A stretch of 64,000 nucleotides of DNA from Oligoflexales bacterium (lineage in GTDB: Bacteria; Bdellovibrionota_B; Oligoflexia; Oligoflexales; Bog-1112), in NCBI GenBank assembly GCA_017985985.1, contig JAGNWK010000003.1, positions 11,865-75,864 of the forward strand. The letters are read 5' to 3'. Shown here piece after piece: positions 3,377 to 62,319 of the stretch (position 1 is its first letter; each line of letters starts with the position of its first letter). A program made the position numbers and the translations under genes. Under the pieces are notes generated by a model that saw only the letters and a program-made list of their open reading frames with translations, had not been told where the DNA came from and made no database searches.

Positions 3377-5260
3377 ATGAAACAAAGAGATGATGTCCGC
3401 AATTTTTGTATTATCGCCCACGTCGATCACGGCAAGACCACCCTCATCGACTTTCTCCTGAGACAGTCTGGGCTTTTCGCCAGCCATGAGAAAACGACCG
3501 ATAGGATGATGGACTCCAACGATATCGAACGAGAACGGGGGATTACCATTCAGGCCAAGAATGCCTCCATCCACTACAAGGGTAAACGTTTAAATATTAT
3601 CGACACGCCAGGCCATGCTGACTTCGGTGGAGAGGTCGAACGGATTATGGGAGCTGTCGATGGCGCCGTACTCCTGGTCGACGCTGTAGAGGGCCCTCTT
3701 CCACAAACCAGGTTTGTACTCGAGAAAGCCTTGGCTCGCGGTCACTCAATCATCCTTTGTATCAACAAAGTCGACCGTTCTGAACTTTTAGATGAAGGGA
3801 TTGCCAGAATTCAGGAAGTCGTCAACGCAACCTTCGATCTCTTCGTCGACTTAAAAGCTACCGAAAAGCAGTGCGACTTCCCCATCGTTTACGCCTGTGC
3901 CCGTAAAGGTTGGTGCACGACAAGCTTCAGTGAAGTCGACGATCTCAGGACGGGGAAAAAACAGGGAACTCTCCAACCCCTCTTCGACCTTTTTATCGAC
4001 TACCTTCCTCCTCCTTCTTACGACGATGAGGAAAAAGCTTTCTCCATGCAGATTTTTAATCTTGCCTGGTCGGATTACTTAGGTCGCCTAGCTCTCGGAC
4101 GAGTTCACTCTGGAACTGTGAAAGCTAATCAAAACCTCTTCTGCCTCGGTCTCAACGAGACAACAAAACAAGCTAAAACGCTCTCTTTCTCAAGTCAGAA
4201 AGTCATGGGCTACGACGGTCTCAAACCGATCGATATTGACCTCCTAAAGCAAGGTGACATCGGGATCCTCGCTGGCTGCACCGACGTAACCATCGGGGAT
4301 ACGATCAGCAGCTCAGCGCAGTTTACACCGTTTGAACGCATTTATGTTGAACCACCAACCCTCAAAATGACGTTTACCATCAATACCTCCCCAAACTCTG
4401 GTCAAGAAGGCGACGCCATCCAATCCCGAAAACTCAAAGAGAGACTGCTCCGGGAATGTCAGAACAACGTTGCTCTACGCTTCGAAGATGGGGTTACCGC
4501 TGAGCAGTTCTATCTCTTCGGCCGGGGCGAGCTCCAATTCGCTGTTCTCATCGAAACGATGCGCCGAGAAGGTCTCGAATTTATGGTAGGCCGACCCGAG
4601 GTCGTCATGAAAAAGAGCGAGGACGGCAAAACTCTAGAACCTGTTGAGGTCGCCCTACTCGATGTACCCAAAAAATTCTCCGGCGAAATCACAGAAATGT
4701 TCCAAGGGAGAAAAGGGATTTTGACCAACTACGAAGAAGTTGGAAATGAAAGAGTCCGACTTTCCTTTGAAATCCCTTCTCGAGGCATTTTGGGGATACG
4801 CAGTCGCTTTATGACCATCACAAGGGGTGAGGGGCTCTTTTCATCTCAACTCAAAGGTTATGAAGATCATAGAGGGGGGATGCTCTCTCGCTTATCTGGA
4901 ACTCTCATTTCAGATAGGGGCGGCAAAACGACAGACTATGCTCTTGAAACGCTCGAGGAACGTGGGGTTCTCTTTATCCGACCTGGTACAGAGGTCTACG
5001 AAGGTATGGTCATCGGGGAATGCAGTCGCGAAAACGACATGAACGTAAACCCAGTGAAACCTAAAAAGCTGACCAACGTCAGAAAGACTTCATCGGATGG
5101 GATCGTTATCCTTGCTGGTATCCGTGAGATGAGCCTCGAACGATCTATTGAATGGATCGATGACGATGAGTGGATCGAATGCACCCCGAAAAGTGTCCGC
5201 ATCCGTAAAAAAATCTTGGATGGAACCAAGCGAAGCGTCGTACGTAGATCTCGGGACTAG
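3377..5260 (+). CDS. typA: Translational GTPase TypA/BipA
   Basis: NFCIIAHVDHGKTTL (G1), DTPGHADFGGE (G3), NKVDR (G4), and a BipA-type C-terminal domain. The track ORF starts at TTG 3344; ATG 3377 (MKQRDDVRNF) is more likely. Confidence 0.92.
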   Translation: MKQRDDVRNFCIIAHVDHGKTTLIDFLLRQSGLFASHEKTTDRMMDSNDIERERGITIQAKNASIHYKGKRLNIIDTPGHADFGGEVERIMGAVDGAVLLVDAVEGPLPQTRFVLEKALARGHSIILCINKVDRSELLDEGIARIQEVVNATFDLFVDLKATEKQCDFPIVYACARKGWCTTSFSEVDDLRTGKKQGTLQPLFDLFIDYLPPPSYDDEEKAFSMQIFNLAWSDYLGRLALGRVHSGTVKANQNLFCLGLNETTKQAKTLSFSSQKVMGYDGLKPIDIDLLKQGDIGILAGCTDVTIGDTISSSAQFTPFERIYVEPPTLKMTFTINTSPNSGQEGDAIQSRKLKERLLRECQNNVALRFEDGVTAEQFYLFGRGELQFAVLIETMRREGLEFMVGRPEVVMKKSEDGKTLEPVEVALLDVPKKFSGEITEMFQGRKGILTNYEEVGNERVRLSFEIPSRGILGIRSRFMTITRGEGLFSSQLKGYEDHRGGMLSRLSGTLISDRGGKTTDYALETLEERGVLFIRPGTEVYEGMVIGECSRENDMNVNPVKPKKLTNVRKTSSDGIVILAGIREMSLERSIEWIDDDEWIECTPKSVRIRKKILDGTKRSVVRRSRD

Positions 5261-7431: not shown

Positions 7432-8220
7432 CTAGTACAACAGAAAAGTCCGTATGATCACTCTCAAGCCTACAAAAATAAGAAGGGAGATAAAAGCAAG
7501 AACGAGAGCCGCGGGACTAAAGTACTTCGAAACCTTTGCCCCCATCTGTCCTCCCCCTAGAGCTCCCACGGCCAGGTAGATCAAAAGTCCGGTCTGCCCC
7601 TGATAAGACCCAGCCCAAAGATGCGTTAAGAAAGTCACGAAACTTGTGCAAGCTAGGACGAACTGAGAGTTTGCCGTAGCTCGATGAATCGGATAACGCA
7701 GAATGAGCATCATAGCAGGAACAAAGATAATACCCCCTCCTATGCCGAGAAGACTGGAGATAAATCCAACAAAGCAGCTGGCCCCCATCATCAGAACAAA
7801 AGCCCGATGAGTATCCCTATCTGTCAGCTCGGTTTTAATGGAATTCTTTGTAAAAAAAACTTTCCAAGCCAGAATGCCAGCCAGAAAAAAAAGCCATAAT
7901 CCAAAAACCCTTTCAAACCAAAGACGAGAAATGAGATCTATGCAGAAGACGCCAAGGAGGGATCCCGGAAAAGCCGCCACAGCTAAGAGACCCGAGCGCT
8001 TATAAGAAATTTTCTTCGTCAGGCCGTAGACAAGACTCCCTGAGAAGGAATTGCAAAAAACCACGGCTATCGATATAGCGGTAATCTGCAAGGCTGATTT
8101 TTCTGGGAAAAGGGAGAGGAGCAAGGGAATGAGGATAAATCCACCACCAGCACCGACGAGAGTTCCCATCAAGGCGGCTACAAAACCTATGGCAATATAA
8201 AGAAGGTCGGGGGCGCTCAT
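7432..8220 (-). CDS. TauE/SafE (TSUP) family anion exporter
   Basis: Polytopic membrane protein with duplicated glycine motifs GTLVGAGGGFILIPLLL and LLGIGGGIIFVPAMM. The likely start is MSAPDLLY (8220) rather than the track start 8415, which would overlap mfd. Confidence 0.8.
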   Translation of the reverse strand: MSAPDLLYIAIGFVAALMGTLVGAGGGFILIPLLLSLFPEKSALQITAISIAVVFCNSFSGSLVYGLTKKISYKRSGLLAVAAFPGSLLGVFCIDLISRLWFERVFGLWLFFLAGILAWKVFFTKNSIKTELTDRDTHRAFVLMMGASCFVGFISSLLGIGGGIIFVPAMMLILRYPIHRATANSQFVLACTSFVTFLTHLWAGSYQGQTGLLIYLAVGALGGGQMGAKVSKYFSPAALVLAFISLLIFVGLRVIIRTFLLY

Positions 8221-18989: not shown

Positions 18990-19239
18990 TCCAATTTCGG
19001 AGACTGCATAATCGTTCAGAAGCAGTAGATTGTGAGAGGAAGAGGCCGGCGCTACGGTCAGCACCTCCCATCCTCTTTCGTTCGCGAAGTTAGGACCAAA
19101 CCAAAGCAAATCCTCAACGCGAACTCAACCCGGATGGGAACCCTCCGCCCTGCTGTCCTCTTCCTCTCACAGCCTACTGCCCTACTCCGAGACCGTCACC
19201 CTGGGCAAGTCCACCGAAAACGAAAAGCACACAACCCCC

Positions 19240-19289
19240 GTCACCCTGAGCGAAGTCCACCGAAGGGGGACGAAGTCGAATGGGTCTCG
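19240..19289 (+). repeat. 50-bp direct repeat, copy 1 (flanks AMP-ligase gene)
   Basis: GTCACCCTGAGCGAAGTCCACCGAAGGGGGACGAAGTCGAATGGGTCTCG, 49/50 identical to 21241-21290. A degenerate partial copy lies just upstream at ~19194-19225. Confidence 0.92.
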
Positions 19290-19330: not shown

Positions 19331-20995
19331 TCACCCCAAATGAGAGTCTCGTTTCGCTTCAAAATATCGGGCAAGGGCAAGTCTATCTATTTTGATATTG
19401 TGTCGGAGGTCGACGGGGAAGGCCGGATGGAGGAAGAATGTTTTTAAGTCCTTTGTTCTATCCACTTTTTGAGCGAGACTGAGCAAGTCCTGTTTAAAGT
19501 GAAGTCTTTCTTGTTTTGAAAGTTCTGTGCGCCGATCTTTTCTTTCAATCACTATGCATGGCTCACGTTTATCCGTATGCGGAAGCGTCAAGCCGATCAA
19601 GGCTGAGCGAGCTACATCAGGATGTTGATTAAAAATAGACTCACATGGGATCGAATCTAAAGGACCGAGATGGGTCTCCACTCGGTGGACTTTTCTGCCA
19701 CAAAACCACAAAACGCCTTCCTCATCGAGATAACCAAGATCTCCCATGCGATGCCAAAAGAAATCCTTCTCATAGATTTTAGCAGCCTGAGTGGCTTTCT
19801 CCTCCTGCTGATAACGGGGGCTAGCCTGAGCCCCTTTCACAACGATCTCTCCGACAGAAAAAGAAGGCAAAGAAGACAGGGGGGAGATTTCTAAAGAGGG
19901 GGGAACGCCCTCTTTAGAAAGAGAAAGAGACTCAATGCTGATCTCTGTCCTAGGGAAAGGCGCTCCAAGAGGTGTCCCTTCACCTCTCTCCATTTTTTGA
20001 GAGTATCTTCCCAAGATATCTCGACCAGAAATACAAGAGACGGGGAGACACTCTGTCGCACCATAAGGCGTATAGGTGTCCCCATTTGGAATCAGAGGCT
20101 GGAACAGGCGATGCAAATCCAAAGACACAGGAGCTCCGAATAGGAGCACCTTCGTCAAAGATGGGAGTGTGATCTTCTTTTCGGTACAGTAAGAAGCCAG
20201 TCTGCGCCAAACAGCGGGTGAACCAGAGATCATGGAAATGCCCTGGTCGACAATCTGTTCATACAAACGACTAGGAGCTGCAGCGGCAGGTCGCCTTATA
20301 TCCATGTCAGGCAAAATACTTGTCCCCCCAAAGGCCATCGTATAAAGGCTAAAAAGGGGAAAAGCCGACATGTCTATCGTCTTCTCATCCAGAGCGAACA
20401 TATCACGTACGAGCTCTGCCTGAGTCGTGAACATCCCGTGTGTGTACAAAACTCCTTTAGGCGCGCCTGTCCCCCCTGAGGTGAACATAATGGCTGCTTC
20501 ATCCCCAGCTTTCAGCTCTAAAGCAGTCTGTTTCGTCTGTACATCTCCATCTCTCTGCGAACTCCAAAACCCGGTATCCGAGCTCGTCACCCAGACCTTC
20601 ACACTTTTAAAAACCCAAGGCACACAAAATCGAGCCCAGCGAACAACAGGTTCGCAAATCACCAACTCGGGGGCCATCTTCGATATAGCTGAGAAAAGGT
20701 TTTTAAAACCCATTCCAGGGTCGATAAAGACTGGGATAACGCCAAGTCTCATCAGAGCTAGAATAATGGCGGGCCAATCGAGGCTAGGGCGTAGAAAGAC
20801 AAGCGCCTTCATGCCCTGTTTCACCCCCAAGGCCTCTAGCCGAGAGCCTAGGGCCTCCGTTCTCTCTAGCAATTGACAGAAAGTAAGATGCGCATAGCTT
20901 CTGCGCTGACGGGAGTCCCTTCCAACGGGAGCTATAAGGGCTCTTTTAAGGGGATATTTTTCAGCCTGAATTTCGATAAGATGGATTAAAGTCAT
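19331..20995 (-). CDS. AMP-dependent synthetase/ligase (acyl-CoA or acyl-AMP ligase family)
   Basis: Adenylation motifs FTSGGTGAPKGV (A3), TYTPYGATE (A5), GEIVVKG (A6), HRMGDLGY (A7), GRKVHRV (A8). ATG 20995 (MTLIHLIE) is preferred over the TTG at 21049. The gene contains an in-frame palindromic repeat. Confidence 0.85.
   Translation of the reverse strand: MTLIHLIEIQAEKYPLKRALIAPVGRDSRQRRSYAHLTFCQLLERTEALGSRLEALGVKQGMKALVFLRPSLDWPAIILALMRLGVIPVFIDPGMGFKNLFSAISKMAPELVICEPVVRWARFCVPWVFKSVKVWVTSSDTGFWSSQRDGDVQTKQTALELKAGDEAAIMFTSGGTGAPKGVLYTHGMFTTQAELVRDMFALDEKTIDMSAFPLFSLYTMAFGGTSILPDMDIRRPAAAAPSRLYEQIVDQGISMISGSPAVWRRLASYCTEKKITLPSLTKVLLFGAPVSLDLHRLFQPLIPNGDTYTPYGATECLPVSCISGRDILGRYSQKMERGEGTPLGAPFPRTEISIESLSLSKEGVPPSLEISPLSSLPSFSVGEIVVKGAQASPRYQQEEKATQAAKIYEKDFFWHRMGDLGYLDEEGVLWFCGRKVHRVETHLGPLDSIPCESIFNQHPDVARSALIGLTLPHTDKREPCIVIERKDRRTELSKQERLHFKQDLLSLAQKVDRTKDLKTFFLHPAFPVDLRHNIKIDRLALARYFEAKRDSHLG
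19879..19917. repeat. Palindromic element (CTAAAGAGGG-GGGAACG-CCCTCTTTAG family) inside a CDS
   Basis: Perfect 10-bp stem with a 7-nt loop at 19891-19917, plus a GGGGGGAGATTT flank. Near-identical copy at 36878-36916 and a degenerate copy at 27228-27267. It is read in frame as SKEGVPPSLEISP. Confidence 0.92.
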
Positions 20996-21078
20996 GGAGC
21001 ACTCAAACGGAGAGGGGTCCTTGTGGAGGAGCAGGCACTGCCCTCCCAAAGCTCGATCTTAGCTTCATTTTTTTGGAA

Positions 21079-21377
21079 GGGATATTATTTCTAGGGGGAA
21101 TCCTCTCCATTTTCTGGCGAAACCATCTACCCCTCCGGCGCATGGGTCTCGAGCTAGAAAAGTACAGACAAGTAAGCGATTTCACCTAAACTGTTGACGG
21201 ACTTTAACTGATAAAGAGGAGCCTCTCCCTTAAGGCCCTGGTCACCCTGAGCGAAGTCCACCGCAGGGGGACGAAGTCGAATGGGTCTCGAGCTAGAAAA
21301 AAACAGACAAGTAAGCGATTTCACCTAAACTGTTTGAGGGATATTATTTCTGGGGAAACCATCTTCGAAGTTTCCCC
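21079..21377. repeat. Composite duplicated intergenic block
   Basis: The 54-bp unit ATGGGTCTCGAGCTAGAAAA..ACAGACAAGTAAGCGATTTCACCTAAACTGTT occurs at 21142-21195 and 21281-21334 (2 mismatches). GGGATATTATTTCT occurs at 21079 and 21338. The block also contains 50-bp repeat copy 2 (21241-21290) and a GGGGAAAC...GTTTCCCC hairpin (21352-21377). Confidence 0.9.
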
Positions 21378-24546: not shown

Positions 24547-24570
24547 AAAGTTTTACCCTTCTTTGTTGTT

Positions 24571-24599
24571 GGGAGAAAGCAGCTGCGCTGTTTTCTCCC
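24571..24599. repeat. GGGAGAAA...TTTTCTCCC hairpin (GGGGAAAC family) between MFP and RND genes
   Basis: GGGAGAAAGCAGCTGCGCTGTTTTCTCCC followed by AATCCCTCTTCC. Same family as 1639-1661, 21352-21377, 37979-38000, 49585-49608 and 54901-54927. Confidence 0.85.
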
Positions 24600-24645
24600 A
24601 ATCCCTCTTCCTTGCCTTGTCCCTGCCGTAAACTGCGTACATCCA

Positions 24646-25752: not shown

Positions 25753-27186
25753 GTGATGCCAGTTCGCAAAAGAATACATCATCAGGAACAAAGAGCTATA
25801 ATTCGGCTTCGCCGAAAGACTCTACTCTCACTCCGTTCAACTTCTCTGACTATTCTGCTTCTCCTTCTCACGTTTTTTTCTTCTTTAACAGTCCACGCTG
25901 AAACCTACGGTGAGGCTTACAATAAATATGTCCAGGGGGATTTTGTAGGAGCTGAGGCCTCCTTCAAAGCAAGCTTAGAAAACAGCGGTTCCAATTTTGA
26001 AAAAGCTAGAACTTATAAAATGCTTGGGATCAGTCAGTACATGCTGGGTAAAAGACAGGAAGCTGAGGACAGCTTCAAAGATGCGAAGAAGCTACAAAAG
26101 GAAATCCAAATCGAACCCTCCGAAGTCCTCGATGAATCTGTTCTCGAGTTCTTCAAAGCTGTCGAGGCTCCTCACGAAGCTCCCGCTCCCAAAAGCCCAA
26201 CCGTTAGAGAGAGTGTACCTGCGGCTGTGGATCCGATTCCTGCACAGAAAAAAGCCAGACTGCTTATCTCCTCGAATGTACAGGATGCGAAAGTTGTCAT
26301 CGACAGTCAGCTCCTGTGGTCCTTATGGCAAGAACTTGAGCTCGAACCAGGGATTCATGAAGTCGAAGTGAGTGCCCCAGAGTACAGCACCTTGAAGCGC
26401 CCTGTGAATTTAGAACAAGGAAAATTAGCAAAAGTTCAGTTTAACTTAAAGAAAAGGGGTTCGGCAGAGGATAAAGTCCCCACCCCTCCTCCTCCTCCAA
26501 GCAGCACCCCCGAGGTCCCCGTCTCAGAAATAAAACCCGAAGAGGCAAAAGTAGAGCCCCCTGCAAAAGCAGTTCGCAAAAAAGGGAAGAAAAGAAAAAC
26601 AGCTCAAACCAGTCCATACCCGATCAACAGCGGAAAACCAAACCCCCTCCTTTCCTTTTTACCCTTCGGAGCAGGTCAGTTTTCCCAAGGAAAAACTCTG
26701 CTGGGGGCTGGCTTTCTAGTCGGCCAAATAGCAGGACTCGGCCTCTTTTATACTCGATATACAGAAGCCGATAGCATGACAGAGAGTGCAAACAAAGTCT
26801 TGGCTCAACGTCAGTCGACACTGGAGAGCCTGCCTGAAGATCAACAGCAAGGCTATTTTGATGAGACAACTAGCTATTACGCCAGTCAGAATGTCAAGAT
26901 CTCTACGGCCAGAACGAATGGCTATTATGGACTCGGGCTCTTCCTAGGCTTGTGGATCGCCAGTTCCTTAGAGGCCCTCTACAACGACGACAGCTCAGGA
27001 CCTCATATAGCCCGAGAACCTAGCATCGAAATGCGAGGAAAAGATCTTTACTGGAAGACCGTCCGTTATGAGACACCAGCCAACTCTCGTTTCATTCCCC
27101 AAGTTGAGTGGTCGCTTTCCCCATTCATCGATACCCAAAATATAGACTCTCGCGGAATCGCCCTGGGGGCTGCTGCAAAATTCTAA
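25753..27186 (+). CDS. Secreted TPR + PEGA-domain protein with Pro-rich linker and C-terminal membrane segments
   Basis: TPR-like AYNKYVQGDFVGAEASFKASL...ARTYKMLGISQYMLGKRQEA. PEGA-like LLISSNVQDAKVVIDSQ...GIHEVEVSAPEYSTLKRPVNL. PTPPPPPSSTPEVP linker and hydrophobic C-terminal helices. Confidence 0.6.
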   Translation: MMPVRKRIHHQEQRAIIRLRRKTLLSLRSTSLTILLLLLTFFSSLTVHAETYGEAYNKYVQGDFVGAEASFKASLENSGSNFEKARTYKMLGISQYMLGKRQEAEDSFKDAKKLQKEIQIEPSEVLDESVLEFFKAVEAPHEAPAPKSPTVRESVPAAVDPIPAQKKARLLISSNVQDAKVVIDSQLLWSLWQELELEPGIHEVEVSAPEYSTLKRPVNLEQGKLAKVQFNLKKRGSAEDKVPTPPPPPSSTPEVPVSEIKPEEAKVEPPAKAVRKKGKKRKTAQTSPYPINSGKPNPLLSFLPFGAGQFSQGKTLLGAGFLVGQIAGLGLFYTRYTEADSMTESANKVLAQRQSTLESLPEDQQQGYFDETTSYYASQNVKISTARTNGYYGLGLFLGLWIASSLEALYNDDSSGPHIAREPSIEMRGKDLYWKTVRYETPANSRFIPQVEWSLSPFIDTQNIDSRGIALGAAAKF

Positions 27187-27227: not shown

Positions 27228-27267
27228 GGGAGATAATCCTAGAGAGGGGGGAACGCCCTCTTTTAGG
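27228..27267. repeat. Degenerate copy of the GGGAACG-loop palindromic element
   Basis: GGGAGATAATCCTAGAGAGGGGGGAACGCCCTCTTTTAGG, 40 nt after the stop of the TPR/PEGA gene. Confidence 0.8.
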
Positions 27268-27312: not shown

Positions 27313-27561
27313 ATGTATATCTGTTTGTGCAAAGCCATCACAGAAAGACAGATCAAAGAACTGGTCTCTGATAAAAAGATTAGCAAACTAGAAGAAGTTC
27401 AAAGGTACAGCCCCATAGGAACAGGCTGCGGATCTTGCCTCACAAGCTTGGAAAAACTACTTCGCGAAGGCTCCTACCCCAGAAAGATCCGCCTTCAGAT
27501 TCCTAGCTCTTCGTTGGAAGATGGGATTGAAGCGATCGCTCCCAGTCCAGTGCGGTCTTGA
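27313..27561 (+). CDS. bfd: Bacterioferritin-associated ferredoxin (BFD-like [2Fe-2S])
   Basis: MYICLCKAITERQIKELV...GTGCGSCL carries the CxC...CxxC BFD signature. The 3' end overlaps the convergent galE by 59 nt. Confidence 0.8.
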   Translation: MYICLCKAITERQIKELVSDKKISKLEEVQRYSPIGTGCGSCLTSLEKLLREGSYPRKIRLQIPSSSLEDGIEAIAPSPVRS

Positions 27562-28531
27562 TAATGACTGTAAGGTCATCCCGGCTTGGCTTCCAATCCA
27601 ATGTTTTGAAAATCTGTGTCGGGTTGGCGATCAGACTGATCGCATCCCCCGGCCTTCTCTCGGCCAAGGTCACTGGAAGTTTGTAGCCCAAAACTTGAGA
27701 AAACGTATCGAGGACTTCTTTTACGGAATAGCCACGGCCATAACCGCAGTTGAGAGTGACACTGGGGGAGCCTGCTTGTAGGTAGTTTAGAGCAGCGAGA
27801 TGAGCCTCCGCCAAGTCTTGCACATGGACATAGTCCCGAACACAGGTCCCATCTTGAGTGGGGTAATCCTCTCCATAAATCTGCAGAGACTTTCGTTTAC
27901 CAACCACAAATTCACAGGCAACTTTGATCAGATGCGTAGCTCGACGAGCTCGCTGACCCAGGATCCCCTTATCCTCTGCCCCTGCCACATTGAAATAGCG
28001 CAGGATGACATAACGAAAACCAGGGCCACAGGCTGCAGCGGTATCTCTTAGAATGGTCTCGTCGATCAACTTAGACTGTCCATAGGGATTTTCAGGTCGA
28101 GTCGGGTCCGTTTCCTCAAATCTTGCACCAACGGCATTCGAAGCATAGACCATCGCTGTCGAGGAGAAGATAAAATTCGGAATTTTAGCGTCCGTCACAG
28201 CTCTTAGGAGCTGAATGAACTGAGCTGTGTTGTTGTGATAGTAAACAAGCGGCGATTGAACCGACTCCTCCACCGAAACAGAAGCAGCGAAATGCAATAC
28301 AGCTGTCACGGGGTACTTAGCAAAGAGGGAACGAAGCAAAGCTCCGTCGCCAACATCACCCTCTATGAAAATTTCCCCTCGCCCGAGGAGGGACTCTCGA
28401 AACCCAGTCGATAGATTATCAAGCGCAATAACAGCATAACCCGCGTCAAGCAGGTTCAAGACCATCTGGCTACCAATATACCCACAAGCTCCGGTCACAA
28501 GAACGTAAGGCTTTGAATGCATACTGCCCAC
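27503..28531 (-). CDS. galE: UDP-glucose 4-epimerase
   Basis: VLVTGACGYIGSQMV (Rossmann GxxGxxG), FSSTAMVY, catalytic YGQSK, RYFNVAGA. Confidence 0.9.
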   Translation of the reverse strand: MGSMHSKPYVLVTGACGYIGSQMVLNLLDAGYAVIALDNLSTGFRESLLGRGEIFIEGDVGDGALLRSLFAKYPVTAVLHFAASVSVEESVQSPLVYYHNNTAQFIQLLRAVTDAKIPNFIFSSTAMVYASNAVGARFEETDPTRPENPYGQSKLIDETILRDTAAACGPGFRYVILRYFNVAGAEDKGILGQRARRATHLIKVACEFVVGKRKSLQIYGEDYPTQDGTCVRDYVHVQDLAEAHLAALNYLQAGSPSVTLNCGYGRGYSVKEVLDTFSQVLGYKLPVTLAERRPGDAISLIANPTQIFKTLDWKPSRDDLTVIIKTALDWERSLQSHLPTKS

Positions 28532-32185: not shown

Positions 32186-32455
32186 AAACTTCCCAAGAGC
32201 TTTCCTCGGATCTCTTTTTCATCATATTTTTAAAAAATCACATTTCAAATTTTGCAGAGAGTAAAATTATTTTTTACTTATTGACAACTTTTGAGATCTT
32301 GAAGTAAGTATAGTTGCTTAAGAAATAGCTTTGAGCTCAACCACTGCATGTTTGAATCCTTCCGTGTTCGTAAACTGCAAGTCTGTCTTTTCCTTTTTTG
32401 ATCATCACATTTTTACTTCTCACTTTAGGTGGTTCGAGCTTGGGGCTTCTCCCCT

Positions 32456-32505
32456 GTTTAATGGGGTCAGCCCCCTTTAAACAAAGGGGGCTGACCCCAT
32501 TAAAC
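32456..32505. repeat. Perfect 23-bp-stem hairpin (AATGGGGTCAGCCCC family), copy 1
   Basis: GTTTAATGGGGTCAGCCCCCTTT-AAAC-AAAGGGGGCTGACCCCATTAAAC. Confidence 0.95.
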
Positions 32506-33014
32506 ACATGAGGCCAAGTGCTATGAGTTGTCCAGCTCGCAAAGCGCAGATGCGCAAGAATCGATCAAACTCCCGCTCGTGTCTAATAGAAATGATCTGC
32601 CTCACATCTCTCTCGATATTAAGAAGCGATATAGGAAGCGAAAAAACGTTCAGGTTGACGCCGATCCCGATGAAGCTCAGGAAAACCACCACGCCAGATT
32701 AAATCAAGCAAGGCTGGGCCTTCTATGCTCCGTCCTTGGAAAGATTCCACTTCAGAGGCTGAAAGAGTGGGAATTTCGATGATACCGATTCGACCAGCAA
32801 GACTATCACTGGCCTCTTGCATCAGATCAAACCTCTGCGATCCTGTTAAAGAATAACGCCCATTCTTTTGCCGATTGCGGTCAATCCTGTGTTTGAGAAT
32901 ACGAAAAAGCTTAGGAGCATACTGGACCTCATCGATAATCAGAGATTCCCCGAGCCTCTCTAGGAATTGCTCTCCAGAGCTTTCCGCCTCCTCAGCATTT
33001 CGAGGTAAGCCCAA
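32506..33014 (-). pseudogene. Remnant of AAA ATPase (COG1373 / DUF4143 family), truncated at both ends and frameshifted
   Basis: ORF 32619..33014 has IIDEVQYAPKLF...YSLTGSQRFDL...SLAGRIGIIEIPTLS..GGFPE. The family motif NIERDVRQIISI..FDRFLRICALRAGQL continues in another frame (ORF 32477..32692). The Walker A N-terminus and the DUF4143 C-terminus are absent. Confidence 0.75.
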
Positions 33015-33021
33015 GGAGACT

Positions 33022-33072
33022 GGCTAATGGGGTCAGCCCCTTTTTTTAAAAAAGGGGCTGACCCCATTAGCC
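33022..33072. repeat. Perfect hairpin (AATGGGGTCAGCCCC family), copy 2
   Basis: GGCTAATGGGGTCAGCCCCTTTTTT-T-AAAAAAGGGGCTGACCCCATTAGCC. Confidence 0.95.
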
Positions 33073-33197
33073 ATTAGCATTCAAACGAAATAATTTTTGT
33101 AAAAAATTGAACAACAACATAAAACAAGTTGGGTCTGAAATAAAAAGATGATCACGTACAGGTACAGAATTTGTCTCTACCGTTGTAACTAGAAGTT

Positions 33198-36103: not shown

Positions 36104-36859
36104 ATGTTCTCTTTTGTAAATCGATGGCTCGCAAAATACAAACAGTTCCAAAAAAAACGCTTTGAACGCAGCGTCGCAAAACACCTCAAACTAGTCCAAA
36201 ACCCAAAAGCCGTGCGCGAGGAGAGGGTCGGAGCTATCGAGTACTTTAGCTCTCTCACGGAATGCAAGATCGCTGTTCCCTCCTTGCTCAAGCGCTTTGA
36301 CTACAGTCTTGACCATGGGATCAACGATACCAGGGAAAAAGAAGCCTGCATGAAGGGGGTGATCCAGTTCAAAGAGCAGGCTCTGCCCTATATTAAGACC
36401 CACCTGCTGATGACCAGTCGCATCGCCTGGCCGATCAAGACCTTTTCGGCCATTGGGACAGAGGAACAGCTCGTCGCGGCTCTCCAGGAATGCCTAGACT
36501 TCTCCGATGTCAGTTTTAATCAGATGAAAGTCGATAAAAACTACGATGTTCTCTGTTACCTCCGGGACCATAAGCTCCCAGACGGGGGACTTTCTCTGCT
36601 TCCTTTCGTTGCCAATCATGATGAACGCGTCCGTTTTGCGGTTGTGGAAGCCATTCTAGCCCAGAAAAACCAGGCGGCTGCAGCAGAAATGGAAGACCTG
36701 CTCCTCAATGAATCTGAGGAGAATACGAGGATCAGACAGTCGATGATTGAAGCTTACGTCGAAAACAAATGGGCTGTTCACCTCAAGGAAAAAATCCAGC
36801 CCGGAACTCTCTGTCCAGGGGTTCGCGTCACCGCTTCGTACAGACTGGAAGCTTTTTAG
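36104..36859 (+). CDS. Hypothetical protein, helical (HEAT-like repeats possible)
   Basis: 251-aa ORF with coding-like composition. HDERVRFAVVEAILAQ resembles a HEAT/PBS-lyase repeat. No confident family assignment. Confidence 0.55.
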   Translation: MFSFVNRWLAKYKQFQKKRFERSVAKHLKLVQNPKAVREERVGAIEYFSSLTECKIAVPSLLKRFDYSLDHGINDTREKEACMKGVIQFKEQALPYIKTHLLMTSRIAWPIKTFSAIGTEEQLVAALQECLDFSDVSFNQMKVDKNYDVLCYLRDHKLPDGGLSLLPFVANHDERVRFAVVEAILAQKNQAAAAEMEDLLLNESEENTRIRQSMIEAYVENKWAVHLKEKIQPGTLCPGVRVTASYRLEAF

Positions 36860-36877: not shown

Positions 36878-36916
36878 GGGGGGAGATTCCTAAAGAGGGG
36901 GGAACGCCCTCTTTAG
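36878..36916. repeat. Palindromic element (GGGAACG-loop family), intergenic copy
   Basis: GGGGGGAGATTCCTAAAGAGGGGGGAACGCCCTCTTTAG, 19 nt after the stop at 36859 and 12 nt before the GT9 start. Confidence 0.92.
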
Positions 36917-36927
36917 AAAGATAATGA

Positions 36928-37932
36928 ATGCAAGCCAAAAAAATCTTGCTGATACAGCTCCGACAGCTTGGGGATATTTTGTTAACAAGCCCTTGCATCA
37001 CTGCTTTAAAAAAGGACAACCCACAGCACCACATTGCCTTTCTCTGCCATAGGATGGGAGTACCCCTGCTGGGAGATCAACCCACATTAGACGCCCTCTA
37101 CACCTATCACGAAAAAGACAGCCTTAGACAGAAGTGGAACTTGCTACAAACCCTCCGGAGGGAACAATTCGACTACGTTTTTGATTTCATGAACAATCCA
37201 CGCAGCAGTCTCTTCGCTTGGTGGACTCGAAGCATAAACAGATACGCTTTCAGCTCAGCTCGTTCCCTAGCTTACACTCATACCATTCCCCGCAGTTCTG
37301 CCGAGAGCTATATCGTGGAGGAAAAGTTTAGCCTTCTCAGAAGTGCTCATTTTAGTGCAGGCTCCGAAGACTTGCTGTGCCCTAAGATCTCCCCTACGGA
37401 TCAAACTGCCGTCGAGACACTCCTCTCTCGTCAAGACTTCCGAGAAGCCAAGCTACGGGTCATCCTCAGCCCCACCCACAGGCGCCGAGCTAGAAGCTGG
37501 CCTCACGATAGATATCTGTCGCTAGCTGCTTATCTCCACCAAAAATGGGGAGCCTGCGTCCTTTGGGCCTGGGGCCCTGGGGAGGAGGAAGAAATCGATC
37601 AACTCATAAGCCAGTGTCAGACACCTAGTTCTAAACTCCCCCGCACATCGATTCGCGAACTCTGCGCAGTTATGCGCCACTGTGATCTCTTCATTGGGAA
37701 TTCCAACGGCCCTAGCCATCTCGCTGTAGCAAGCAGCCTCTGCTCCCTCCAACTTCATGGACCAACCAATTCCCTATCCTGGTGTCCGATGAACTCTAGA
37801 CATCAAGCTATCCAAGGCGTTAGCATGGATGCTATCTCTTTAGAACAAGTGCAAAAAAAGCTAGAAGATCCGTCTTTCCTCAGGGTCTTCTCCGAACGAG
37901 GATCGATTACAACTAGGGAGAGAAGATCCTAA
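36928..37932 (+). CDS. Glycosyltransferase family 9 (LPS heptosyltransferase-like)
   Basis: ILLIQLRQLGDILLTSPCITALKK (GT9 N-terminal signature) and C-terminal FIGNSNGPSHLA. Confidence 0.8.
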   Translation: MQAKKILLIQLRQLGDILLTSPCITALKKDNPQHHIAFLCHRMGVPLLGDQPTLDALYTYHEKDSLRQKWNLLQTLRREQFDYVFDFMNNPRSSLFAWWTRSINRYAFSSARSLAYTHTIPRSSAESYIVEEKFSLLRSAHFSAGSEDLLCPKISPTDQTAVETLLSRQDFREAKLRVILSPTHRRRARSWPHDRYLSLAAYLHQKWGACVLWAWGPGEEEEIDQLISQCQTPSSKLPRTSIRELCAVMRHCDLFIGNSNGPSHLAVASSLCSLQLHGPTNSLSWCPMNSRHQAIQGVSMDAISLEQVQKKLEDPSFLRVFSERGSITTRERRS

Positions 37933-44327: not shown

Positions 44328-45794
44328 ATGAAAGCATTCCTGCTCTTCAGAGTAGCCTTATTTATAGGCCTGTCTTACGTGGAGAGTCTTCAAGCTGCTC
44401 CTACAACGGCTCCTTTACCTGTAAAAGCAAAAGATAACCCTGTAAATTCTCAGCCACAGGCAGTTATTCCGCTCATAAATTCTCAACCTCAGACAGAGAA
44501 GCAAGTAACAAAACTACACTCCGCTCCTGTCATCTTGACTGCTACCGACCTAGATCCTGAATTAGCAAGAGAATTGCTTGTCAGAAAAGGAAAGGTTTAT
44601 CCCCTCACTACTTGCGGGCTCTTTCAAACAAGTGAAGATGGCTCAGCTATTCCGATTCCCTTTCAAATCGATGAGAAAGATGATTATGGGGACTATATTC
44701 TCGACCAGGGCAAGAACGCCAATTCAGCCTATAGCAATGGAGTTTTTGACAACTTCGATGAAATAAGCTTTATGGGTAACGATATTGGACCAAAAAAAAT
44801 TCCTACTGAGTGGATAGGAAAAAAGCCAAGTATTCTTTATGAGCTGATTTTCAAACGAGGTGACAAGGAAGGGGCTGTCTATTTTGCTGTTTTTGGAGGG
44901 AGACCACCTGTCAGTTCTAACCTCAACTATGTAAGATTTAATCTAAAAAATGCAGAGGTTGAAACATCCCGTTATCGTTACCAATTCGACGAAAACAATT
45001 ACCTCGTTGTCCGTGGCATCTCCGTAAAAGACCAAAAAGGCAGCGAAAAGAGACTGATCGATTCATCTACCTTTTATTTAAAAGCTGATTTTCAATATTT
45101 CGTGACAGTCAGCGCCAACCATCAACGCATCCAAAGTGAGCTCGACGCTTACAAGACAGGCCCTGTTCGAACTATAGCCAGAGTCAACTTTAACTTGGTT
45201 TTATTAGGCATGCAGTTTCAATTGGGGATGTACACTGAAGTTTCGTTCTTTTCCAATGCGGTCGTTCTACCTGCTATCCTCGATAATCCGATCAATGGTG
45301 AAAAAAGTCTTAATAAAAACAGTCTTTTTTACTATGGTCTTGCTACCGTCGACAATCCTGAAAAATTAAAAATAAGCTCGAATATGCCTGCTTTTAAAGA
45401 GGAAGACAGATCGTTCTTCAATATGAGCAGCATTCTAGGAAAAAAGAAATCAGACGAACTTTACTGGGTCTCAGCTCTAGCACCAGGATATATGCTCCAT
45501 TTTGAATTTAAGCCTTCTGCCGACATGATCAAAATGCAAAGTATCCCAAGATTTTATGTCGAAAACACCGCTGCAGATCAAATGGAAAAAAGGTCCAAAG
45601 GCGCTCAGCCCCTTGGCAAGAGCCCTGTAAACATGGCTCTCGGCTTTGACCTTCATCTCCTTAAAGAAGGGGTCCATCTTATTAAATTCCAACTCTTCTT
45701 TGAGAATTTTGAAGATCCAGAAACCCTCGACCAGTTCCGAAATCTTTCGGAGTGGAGACTTCGATCTAAAAAAATCGGTCCGCGAGAATTCTAA
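44328..45794 (+). CDS. Secreted hypothetical protein
   Basis: Signal peptide MKAFLLFRVALFIGLSYVESLQA. 488 aa with beta-rich-looking composition. No family recognised. Confidence 0.6.
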   Translation: MKAFLLFRVALFIGLSYVESLQAAPTTAPLPVKAKDNPVNSQPQAVIPLINSQPQTEKQVTKLHSAPVILTATDLDPELARELLVRKGKVYPLTTCGLFQTSEDGSAIPIPFQIDEKDDYGDYILDQGKNANSAYSNGVFDNFDEISFMGNDIGPKKIPTEWIGKKPSILYELIFKRGDKEGAVYFAVFGGRPPVSSNLNYVRFNLKNAEVETSRYRYQFDENNYLVVRGISVKDQKGSEKRLIDSSTFYLKADFQYFVTVSANHQRIQSELDAYKTGPVRTIARVNFNLVLLGMQFQLGMYTEVSFFSNAVVLPAILDNPINGEKSLNKNSLFYYGLATVDNPEKLKISSNMPAFKEEDRSFFNMSSILGKKKSDELYWVSALAPGYMLHFEFKPSADMIKMQSIPRFYVENTAADQMEKRSKGAQPLGKSPVNMALGFDLHLLKEGVHLIKFQLFFENFEDPETLDQFRNLSEWRLRSKKIGPREF

Positions 45795-45823
45795 AGGCAA
45801 AAATCTTTTTTTGCCTTTAGAAT
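45788..45823 (+). terminator. 16-bp-stem hairpin spanning the stop codon of the 488-aa gene
   Basis: ATTCTAAAGGCAAAAA-TC-TTTTTTTGCCTTTAGAAT. The stem is A/T-run rich and there is no separate downstream T tract. Confidence 0.5.
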
Positions 45824-45870
45824 TTAGCTATGCTCGTTCCCTGTGCGCCTCAAATTTCGAAAGGCAGGGA

Positions 45871-49481: not shown

Positions 49482-49584
49482 AAGGATGATGGCTCTCCAA
49501 CCATTCCACCGAAGCGAGCAGAATCCACAGCAGATCCCACTGAGTCGTGGGGCACTCCTCTCCACAATAGGCGACCGTTAGTTA

Positions 49585-49608
49585 GGGGAAACTGCGCAGT
49601 TTTCTCCC
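49585..49608. repeat. GGGGAAAC-family hairpin plus CCCTC tail
   Basis: GGGGAAACTGCGCAGTTTTCTCCC followed by AAACCCTCTTC, about 120 nt upstream of clpB. Confidence 0.85.
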
Positions 49609-49728
49609 AAACCCTCTTCTTGCTCTTGCGCAACAAACGGACAGTCTATTTAAGATATTTTTACGTTCTCCGATAGCCCCCTGGGGCTTAATTATTTTTT
49701 TGCCCCCATTCCTTTATGAGGGTGGGTC

Positions 49729-52492: not shown

Positions 52493-52567
52493 TGGGGCGT
52501 CGTCAAGCGGTAAGACACTAGATTTTGATTCTAGTATGCGCAGGTTCGATTCCTGCCGCCCCAGCCA
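52493..52567 (+). tRNA. tRNA-Gln (anticodon UUG), CCA encoded
   Basis: Hand-folded cloverleaf. Acceptor TGGGGCG/CGCCCCA; D-arm GTC-AAGCGGTAA-GAC; anticodon arm CTAGA-TTTTGAT-TCTAG; T-arm GCAGG-TTCGATT-CCTGC; discriminator G plus CCA. Confidence 0.9.
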
Positions 52568-62210: not shown

Positions 62211-62319
62211 AAGGTGATGACTAGACGCCCTAAGCACCTGGTACAATCTCTACCGTTGCTGCCTTCCGGCCCTGGCGGGTTTCAAGATCTTCCATCACCT
62301 AGGATCTAGCCATCACCTT
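62211..62319 (-). ncRNA. ffs: Signal recognition particle RNA (small/4.5S type)
   Basis: The minus strand has 5' AAGGTGATGGCTAGA pairing with 3' TCTAGTCATCACCTT. The apical region CCAGGGCCGGAAGGCAGCAACGG matches the conserved domain IV core (CAGGUCCGGAAGGAAGCAGCC) with a GGAA tetraloop. Confidence 0.75.

Follow-up and report, generated by a model that had tools for sequence, protein, structure and literature searches.

A hairpin repeat in frame inside a ligase gene

In a 64-kb stretch of DNA from an Oligoflexales bacterium (hereafter the window), a gene for a fatty-acid CoA ligase contains a palindrome that recurs elsewhere in the same stretch, which raises the question of what a dispersed repeat is doing inside a reading frame. 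We consider it probable that a short dispersed element, non-coding and hairpin-forming, has a copy at positions 19879-19923, where it is tolerated in frame in an OleC-like ligase. The features concerned are the following, with the coordinates of the copies given on the + strand.

19331..20995, minus strand: fatty-acid CoA ligase family protein, ANL/AMP-binding, OleC-like (NCBIfam PRK09274), 554 aa
19879..19923, + strand: genic repeat unit, 45 nt, made of a GGGGGGAG head, a spacer, the hairpin and an AAAGAG tail
19888..19920, no strand assigned: perfect stem of the genic copy, 13 bp, with the 7-nt loop GGGAACG (+) or CGTTCCC (mRNA strand)
27228..27267, + strand: degenerate intergenic copy with an eroded head, AGGGAGAT, and an 8-bp stem, 25.1 bits with covariance model R1
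36878..36922, + strand: intergenic copy with a 10-bp stem

The genic copy, read on the + strand, is GGGGGGAGATTT-CTAAAGAGGG-GGGAACG-CCCTCTTTAG (19879-19917). An initial annotation of this DNA had reported a perfect hairpin, CTAAAGAGGG-GGGAACG-CCCTCTTTAG, inside the ligase open reading frame (ORF), and we found it there, 27 nt long, at 19891-19917. The same annotation had mentioned a near-identical second copy and a degenerate third one, and both were recovered, the former as an identical 27-mer at 36890-36916 and the latter with 3 mismatches at 27239-27265. Dinucleotide shuffles gave an expectation of 0 matches of such quality, as compared with the 3 copies in the window, all of which have the G-rich form on the + strand. 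Over the 45-nt units, 19879-19923 and 36878-36922 differ by 2 mismatches, and their longest exact common run is 32 nt. The copies have a GGGGGGAGATT flank in common, and the three-copy alignment indicated that the G-run head and the short purine tail are part of the unit. With covariance model R1, the genic copy scores 37.8 bits (E=1.8e-7), and a scan of the window with this model yielded no further good copies.

The copy at 36878-36922 lies 19 nt past the stop of a HEAT-like ORF (36104-36859, +) and ends 6 nt ahead of the ATG of a family-9 glycosyltransferase gene (36928-37932, +). The one at 27228-27267, located between a PEGA/TPR protein gene (25753-27186, +) and a BFD-like ferredoxin gene (27313-27561, +), is unchanged in a Logan contig from another sample (L131). 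Model R1 also identified a fourth copy in the same organism, ~140 nt past the right end of the window (L128 4031-4073) and 2 nt past the stop codon of a prolyl-tRNA synthetase (ProRS) gene, which makes 4 copies in ~67 kb of this organism's DNA. A scan of genome contigs with a 19-mer, overly specific in that it included an A/T pair particular to the window, returned one Oligoflexales locus. Incidentally, the Oligoflexales chromosome OZ245333.1 (L001) has two copies, at 3755-3803 and 7581-7630, both with a G-run head and a CGAGAGG(G) stem, and their loop is flipped relative to the head, reading CGTTCCC and not GGGAACG.

Structure of the hairpin

The stem of the genic copy had been described correctly as perfect and incorrectly as to its length, which is really 13 bp (TTTCTAAAGAGGG|GGGAACG|CCCTCTTTAGAAA); the second copy pairs over 10 bp and the third over 8 bp. 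On the G-rich strand, the loop closes further via an inner G-C pair, leaving a GAA triloop. Folding as DNA gave -12.6 kcal/mol for the G strand and -11.1 kcal/mol for the C strand (z ~ -6.5), and the G-strand hairpin was 1.4-1.6 kcal/mol more stable than its complement. Since the G-rich form is on the + strand and the gene on the minus strand, the ligase mRNA carries the C-rich form. An 86-nt mRNA-sense RNA stretch folded at -22.6 kcal/mol (z -3.3), with the hairpin dominating the minimum-energy fold.

The head mirrors the 5' arm of the stem, in the arrangement GGGGGGAG-x ... x-GAGGGGGG. In 14 of 21 distinct spacers, which are non-independent, the same base follows AG and precedes GAGGG, as compared with ~28% expected. 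This mirror geometry would permit a purine-motif triplex with the head in the stem groove, and we mention it as a lead only.

A second hairpin family, unrelated to the main element, was noticed at 24563-24619, 49578-49628, and 1631-1681, all on the minus strand. It consists of a purine tract AAGAGGG, 3 nt, and a stem with a GCA triloop, GGGAGAAAAC(A/T)GC-GCA-GCTG..TTTCTCCC. Its copies are intergenic or just past a stop codon, and here too the purine tract mirrors the 5' arm.

Translation through the repeat

As claimed in the initial annotation, the repeat is translated without a frame break, as ...TEISIESLSLSKEGVPPSLEISPLSSLPSFSVGEIVVKG..., and the genic copy encodes ~15 aa, LSLSKEGVPPSLEIS. 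The frame 3 product of the element on the mRNA strand is LSKEGVPPSLEISP, and the peptide of the genic copy is EGVPPSLEISPLSSLPSFSVGEIVVK. Each strand of the element offers one stop-free frame of three, because the stem holds CTAAAG and CTTTAG, on which the other two frames hit TAA or TAG. As the 45-nt (or 39-nt) unit is divisible by three, the downstream frame is preserved. Hence, with a unit that is a multiple of three and a gene in phase with the one frame of its strand that lacks stops, the ribosome would read through. Of the three possible insertion phases, one would leave the gene open, and the other two would be purged by selection.

Nor is the ligase the only protein with a translated copy, since a sodium:solute symporter encoded on a lake contig (L106 5100-6509, minus) reads into a related copy and ends with ...SGGRSPLQTSPLS before the stop codon. 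Likewise, an ORF for an uncharacterised protein (L062 4883-6055, minus) runs into the element, which also supplies the stop codon. In these two ORFs, the element contributes the last 8-13 residues. A search for other translated copies with three tandem peptide variants gave 25 word-sharing candidates, none with E<=10, by a method that cannot score such short matches.

The host gene looks functional

The mechanical ORF spans 19331-21049 from a TTG start, and the NCBI annotation begins at MTLIHL, hence 19331-20995. The product matched Pfam AMP-binding (E=1.8e-44) and NCBIfam NF006754 (PRK09274), the latter with 521.5 bits for a cutoff of 478 and over profile positions 7-550 of 555. The OleC equivalogs NF045785/6 gave scores (397/394) far below their cutoffs (850/900), for which reason we did not file the ligase as OleC. 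It is 100% identical to P0001, a protein of an NCBI metagenome-assembled genome (MAG) named as Oligoflexales bacterium, and the next homologues show just 46-48% identity.

All columns that are invariant among 22 or 68 homologues are conserved in the ligase, and the core motifs A3, A5, A6, and A10 are intact (P-loop TSGGTGxPKG, YGATE, GEIVVKG, and the PVDxRHNIKIDR lysine motif). The AlphaFold model, which Foldseek assigned to the ANL fold, has a mean predicted local distance difference test score (pLDDT) of 91.8 and is confident except for the insert and one other loop. The initial annotation had allowed for a pseudogene, and none is visible: the 554-aa frame is uninterrupted, the invariant residues are kept, and the full-length family score is above its cutoff. 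Judging from the family match, the invariant residues, and the model, the ligase gene looks functional.

The segment is foreign to the ligase

The element lies where it had been placed, between YGATE (A5) and GEIVVKG (A6). None of 119 homologues carries the segment, in agreement with the view that it belongs to a dispersed element and is not native ligase sequence. What did not hold was the statement that the A5-A6 loop is usually short. The stretch from the invariant GxGT to GE is 35 aa long in 105 of 120 homologues and 25-33 aa in 14, and reaches 40 aa only in the ligase of the window. As for the predicted indel of 13-15 aa, it was found at exactly 15 aa by comparison with the closest homologue, P0002, and is a net 5 aa only by comparison with the family norm.

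BLASTP against P0002, whose loop is unusually short among homologues, opened one clean 15-aa gap covering ESLSLSKEGVPPSLE (residues 355-369). If the family norm is taken as the starting point, about 8-12 native residues would have been lost or replaced, and part of the ordered native loop would be gone; the alternative is an ancestor with a short loop like that of P0002. The C-terminal part of the native loop is still recognisable (SLPSFSV, compare ELPxxEV). In a neighbor-joining tree that excluded the loop, all distances were ~0.5, and the tree, unlike the distances, did not place P0002 nearest.

In the AlphaFold model, the insert is a loop in the form of a low-confidence coil. Residues 361-370 have a pLDDT of ~52 and no secondary structure, and sit between strands 351-355 and 382-387. 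At the same site, the homologue from Bacteriovorax stolpii (P0095) has an ordered excursion with a pLDDT of 96-98. An ordered surface excursion of an ANL ligase would thus be replaceable by 15 residues of repeat-encoded coil.

The element occurs in many unrelated replicons

The repeat had been treated as private to this genome. This turned out to be wrong, as the head-plus-hairpin was found in many unrelated contigs, plasmids included. An exact scan with a 17-nt core, GAGGGGGGAACGCCCTC, returned at least 120 metagenome stretches. Among the matches listed, a G-run (GGGGGGAG or near) was present within 25 nt upstream in 97 of 120 evaluable cases and downstream in 16 of 120, as compared with 6% of random 25-mers drawn from the same loci. 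It ends -1 to 4 nt from the stem base.

Past the searched core, the outer stem is formed by at least 20 different complementary sequences (for example, CGC/GCG, TAT/ATA, TCTG/CAGA, GTGTCG/TGACGC, and CTAAA/TTTAG). The two pairs adjoining the core (21-41 and 22-40) occur in all four Watson-Crick types and are paired in 54 of 55 distinct sequences. The covariation score was 0.408 versus 0.107 for shuffled data, a value reached by none of 500 shuffles, and sliding the partner column abolished the signal. Taken with the position of the G-run, these alignments indicate that the hairpin is under selection as a structure and that the purine head belongs to the unit. The GC content of the motif-bearing loci ranges from 38% to 69%, and the GGGAACG loop is kept in variants with changed stems (L071, L062, L055, and L051).

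The contexts fall into several groups. Closest in layout to the window copies are lake contigs (47-50% GC) in which the element lies 4-17 nt past the stop codon of a long ORF. These long ORFs are on the C-rich strand, the element is often between convergent genes, and both orientations occur relative to the neighbours. The organisms are not close relatives of that of the window, the sole shared orthologue found being 38% identical. In a second group, the element is followed after 190-300 nt by MobA/MobL relaxase genes that have a NikA/MobC partner, and in a third, two tandem copies precede a Mob_Pre relaxase by ~130 nt. A fourth group comprises small plasmids with the element 230-280 nt upstream of RepL, in non-coding DNA with several hairpins, after which come iterons and a promoter. 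Other groups consist of dispersed repeats with ~100 nt conserved flanks, or of arrays with GAA- or GCA-triloop mini-hairpins.

In one such set (L064 1-340 and related Ga0172372/3/6 contigs), the arrays are intergenic and the element alternates with mini-hairpins having GAA, GCA, or CCC loops, such as CTGGGGATC-GAA-GATCCCCAG and GGGGACC-GCA-GGTCCCC, in a manner reminiscent of mosaics of the bacterial interspersed mosaic element (BIME) type.

Looser variants were seen in intergenic DNA of Clavibacter pCM2, of a Bradyrhizobium plasmid, and of a microvirus, after its capsid gene. BLAST searches of PLSDB and phages with 42-mers gave variant matches only, in unannotated intergenic DNA. At the gathering score, Rfam 15 recognized only a signal recognition particle (SRP) RNA and a tRNA in the window and nothing over the motif in 16 loci. 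At an E-value threshold, the best sub-threshold match of the intergenic copy had E>=0.7, and two plasmid regions were negative. Literature searches with sequence strings gave chance matches only. Thus, as the initial annotation had supposed, the element family appears undescribed.

Comparison with known repeats and signals

The initial annotation had drawn a parallel with Rickettsia palindromic elements (RPEs). These are palindromic repeats found between genes and in ORFs, where the frame is kept and a short peptide is added at a site compatible with the fold; they are ~150 bp long, form ten families, each with a conserved peptide, and are confined to Rickettsia (PMC10969869). The parallel is sound as regards an in-frame palindromic insertion that preserves the host protein, and fails as regards length and phylum, so that the element is RPE-like in behaviour only. 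The element is in frame inside the ligase, with the C-terminal read-through in L106 as a second case. Unlike RPEs (about 100-150 bp, peptide of 30-50 aa), it measures 39-51 bp and encodes 13-17 aa. Its host is an Oligoflexales MAG, one internal genic copy was seen, and the core occurs in unrelated replicons, all of which sets it apart from RPEs as described.

Repetitive extragenic palindromes (REPs) are short (20-65 bp) imperfect palindromes with a GT(A/G)G head, extragenic at gene 3' ends and associated with RAYT transposases of the Y1 (IS200/IS605-like) type (PMC2817692). They typically number more than 100 per genome, and the organism of the window has shown 4 copies of the element in ~67 kb. 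The element resembles them as a short palindrome with a conserved 5' head, often at gene 3' ends, with a stem (7-13 bp here) kept by compensatory changes, and with arrays including other hairpins in some contigs. It differs in its head, which is GGGGGGAG (in 97 of 120 copies listed), with no GTAG or GTGG beside the window copies, and in that the window copies are single and in one orientation, without inverted doublets. Also, REP families are lineage-specific, whereas the core of the element spans contigs of 38-69% GC and plasmids.

The element shares with intrinsic terminators and SPRITE-type repeats a stable GC-rich hairpin directly downstream of genes, often between convergent genes; unlike terminators, it has a conserved loop and an upstream G-run, and no U-tract on either strand. 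The plasmid RSF1010 has ssiA and ssiB, which are recognised by the RepB' primase and consist of a specific 5' tail and a GC-rich hairpin with a GAA loop. The element is like such single-strand initiation sites (ssi) and single-strand origins (sso) of plasmids and phages by its 5' tail, its GC-rich GAA-loop hairpin, and its location in non-coding DNA near rep/mob genes and in a microvirus. It is unlike them in that most copies are chromosomal and beside stop codons, and no sequence identity to known ssi/sso was shown.

Several other identities were tried and rejected. The element is too short for a miniature inverted-repeat transposable element (~100-400 bp, with terminal inverted repeats and a target-site duplication); the flanks AAAGAAGAC/AAAGAGAC are imperfectly alike at the genic copy, and nothing comparable is found at 36878-36922. 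An intrinsic terminator was dismissed for lack of a U-tract, as what comes after the stem is AAAGA... on the + strand and AAATCTCCCCCC on the minus strand, and the repeat was absent from the list of a terminator scan. On sequence inspection, we also discarded a promoter for an extracytoplasmic function sigma factor (GGAAC is in the loop, but there is no conserved -10), a G-quadruplex (the hairpin is far more stable), as well as a CsrA site, a guanidine-II riboswitch, and a tRNA T-arm mimic.

Assembly evidence around the ligase gene

Same-organism Logan contigs (L149/L150; four public runs) have their first base at 36892, within the 32-nt run common to both copies, as expected of a k-mer graph at a repeat. 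Other Logan contigs (L129/L130 and L131) end at ~18982 and 21305, flanking the ligase, where other repeats lie. When an empty-site allele or the genic junction was sought in Logan, contigs ended at these two positions and also at the element. The genic copy has its junctions documented by the MAG contig only. That the two halves of a single conserved gene meet in frame argues against a chimera. As these four runs illustrate, such elements break short-read assemblies, and they can mislead gene callers.

A 55-nt direct repeat, 95% identical, brackets the ligase at 19235-19289 and 21236-21290, 2001 nt start to start. Its sequence is …GTCACCCTGAGCGAAGTCCACCG[A/C]AGGGGGACGAAGTCGAATGGGTCTCG, and these are the only two copies in the window. 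The ligase could therefore be on a cassette or in a rearranged segment. Upstream of the gene (21070-21365), a 57-nt unit occurs at 21139 and 21278 (95% identical, spacing 139), and a 19-nt tandem-duplicated unit at 21078 and 21337. In the spacer of 400 nt on the downstream side of the gene, there is a 29-nt inverted repeat (19022-19050 / 19152-19180), 86% complementary, with arms 101 nt apart.

Origin of the genic copy and role of the element

We propose that the element is composed of a 5' purine head (GGGGGGAG), a 0-4 nt spacer, and a stem of 7-13 bp with inner pairs GAGGG/CCCTC and the loop GGGAACG. It would act as nucleic acid and not as protein, its stem being kept by compensatory changes across unrelated replicons, and its usual homes would be after stop codons, between genes, and upstream of plasmid rep/mob genes. 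One copy would have inserted into the N-terminal domain of the ligase, at a surface excursion between A5 and A6 whose length varies, and read-through there would yield ~15 residues of Ser/Pro/Leu-rich coil. Judging from the conserved motifs, the remainder of the enzyme would be untouched and probably still works.

By analogy with REPs or RPEs, the genic copy is most plausibly a by-product that arose as the element spread and was tolerated, and in our reading the element would be REP-like and structure-dependent. The genic insertion is probably recent, since it matches the intergenic copy at 96% identity and its stem is the longest. Three points here are our inference: the copy came by insertion and not through some other way of copying, the enzyme tolerates its presence, and the structure is one that single-stranded DNA or RNA adopts. 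The ligase would then be one more case of tolerance to an in-frame palindromic repeat, in a new phylum and with a much smaller element. As such, it is a small-scale variant of a phenomenon known from Rickettsia, and the element family is the more interesting lead.

A number of observations weigh against this interpretation. The best homologue is just 46-48% identical, and neither a close orthologue nor an empty-site allele was found, so that the insertion is deduced from distant homologues; because the tree leaves the ancestral loop length undecided, its size, +5 or +15 aa, depends on the ancestor. No convincing target-site duplication was found at the copies, and no transposase or RAYT in the 64-kb window. 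An approximate IS200 TnpA query with phmmer, which divergent RAYTs could escape, hit 1 ORF (L076) in 830 kb of motif-bearing loci and showed no association with the element. Orientation relative to GC skew had no overall bias (47 vs 48; 16 vs 7 in the most similar group, on short contigs). This was not as predicted, because transposition targeted to the lagging-strand template should give a bias. Conservation of the core and loop is partly a collection effect because the query pattern fixed the core, and a scan of viral contigs with the loop left free gave 16 matches with various loops, near the chance number in GC-rich contigs. Last, Logan assemblies did not yield the intact ligase gene or contain a record of its exact protein. 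This, together with its long branch and the 55-nt bracketing repeats, means that the gene may have lost its function.

Could the gene then be a decaying pseudogene, or the locus an assembly artefact of a repeat-rich MAG contig, in which case the in-frame reading would be meaningless? The divergence of the ligase (<=48% identical to anything), the direct repeats and tandem duplications around it, and the Logan contigs of the same organism that end on either side of it would fit. We regard this as very unlikely, given the uninterrupted frame with its family-invariant residues, the full-length equivalog score above cutoff, and a model that is confident save for the insert and one other loop. Moreover, a chimeric join at a repeat would not rebuild both halves of the gene in frame, and the Logan breaks are those expected of a k=31 graph at 32-nt exact repeats. 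The reverse scenario, in which the ligase gene is the original home of the segment and the source of the intergenic copies, could appeal to the Ser/Leu/Pro-rich flanks (SLSLS...SPLSSLPSFS), which blend with the insert and leave the boundary of the element not sharp. It is effectively refuted by the absence of the segment from all 119 homologues and by the occurrence of core and head in >100 unrelated contigs with no ligase nearby.

Two other explanations concern the function of the family; both are live, and neither alters the reading of the genic copy as a tolerated by-product. The element might be an RNA 3'-end or intercistronic element, that is, an mRNA stabiliser, a termination modulator, or a non-canonical terminator, as for E. 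coli REPs, and the genic copy would then regulate the ligase mRNA by pausing, cleavage, or premature termination. Its location 4-17 nt past stop codons, between convergent or tandem genes, speaks for this, as do the stability of the mRNA-sense hairpin and the fact that the ligase mRNA has it in the same C-rich orientation as after stop codons in the lake contigs and the ProRS gene. Yet, there is no U-tract on either strand (A-rich sequence follows the G form and CUCCCCCC the C form), hence no canonical terminator, whereas the genome does have canonical A-tract/hairpin/T-tract terminators, for example, at 45787-45824. As both orientations occur relative to adjoining genes, and there is no Rfam match, we hold such a role to be unlikely, if worth keeping in mind.

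The other explanation, which we find rather doubtful, is that of a single-stranded DNA signal from plasmids or single-stranded DNA phages (sso/ssi, oriT-like, or an HUH-nuclease hairpin), whose chromosomal copies were spread or left by the machinery. It would account for the position of the motif ~130-300 nt upstream of MobA/MobL (MOBQ-type) and Mob_Pre (MOBV-type) genes and ~230-280 nt upstream of RepL, on the coding strand and within multi-hairpin non-coding regions in the three plasmid groups, and for the variant that a microvirus carries in intergenic DNA behind its major capsid gene. The greater stability, as DNA, of the G strand with its GAA triloop, the arrays with GNA-triloop mini-hairpins in other contigs, and the likeness to the tail and GAA-loop hairpin of RSF1010 ssiA/ssiB point the same way. 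However, dozens of chromosomal copies lie right after stop codons, where a priming or transfer role is not obvious, orientation has no overall bias relative to GC skew, and the window contains no primase, relaxase, or Y1 transposase. The plasmid groups represent few independent lineages, and the PLSDB matches have no functional annotation beneath them.

A bolder and, in our opinion, improbable proposal is that the GGGGGGAG head and the GAGGG-GGGAACG-CCCTC hairpin form an undescribed cross-replicon signal for a common enzyme, perhaps with a triplex fold, of which the chromosomal copies are the products. The recogniser may be a primase or the single-strand-origin machinery, or an HUH-type nuclease. 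Were the element a recognition signal common to these replicons, the single-strand DNA biology of plasmids and phages would be connected to the REP-like repeats of chromosomes, and there would be a concrete sequence for studying how such repeats spread.

Other features of the window

Two long perfect palindromes, at 32455-32506 and 33021-33073 (24-nt and 26-nt arms), share TAATGGGGTCAGCCCC..TTT and lie within a 1-kb region without an ORF of at least 150 aa. The BFD-like ferredoxin ORF (27313-27561, +) and a convergent epimerase gene (27503-28531, minus) overlap at their 3' ends by 59 nt. The sole Rfam/ARAGORN matches in the window are a bacterial small SRP RNA at 62216-62311 (minus, 67.4 bits) and a tRNA-Gln(TTG) at 52493-52567 (+).

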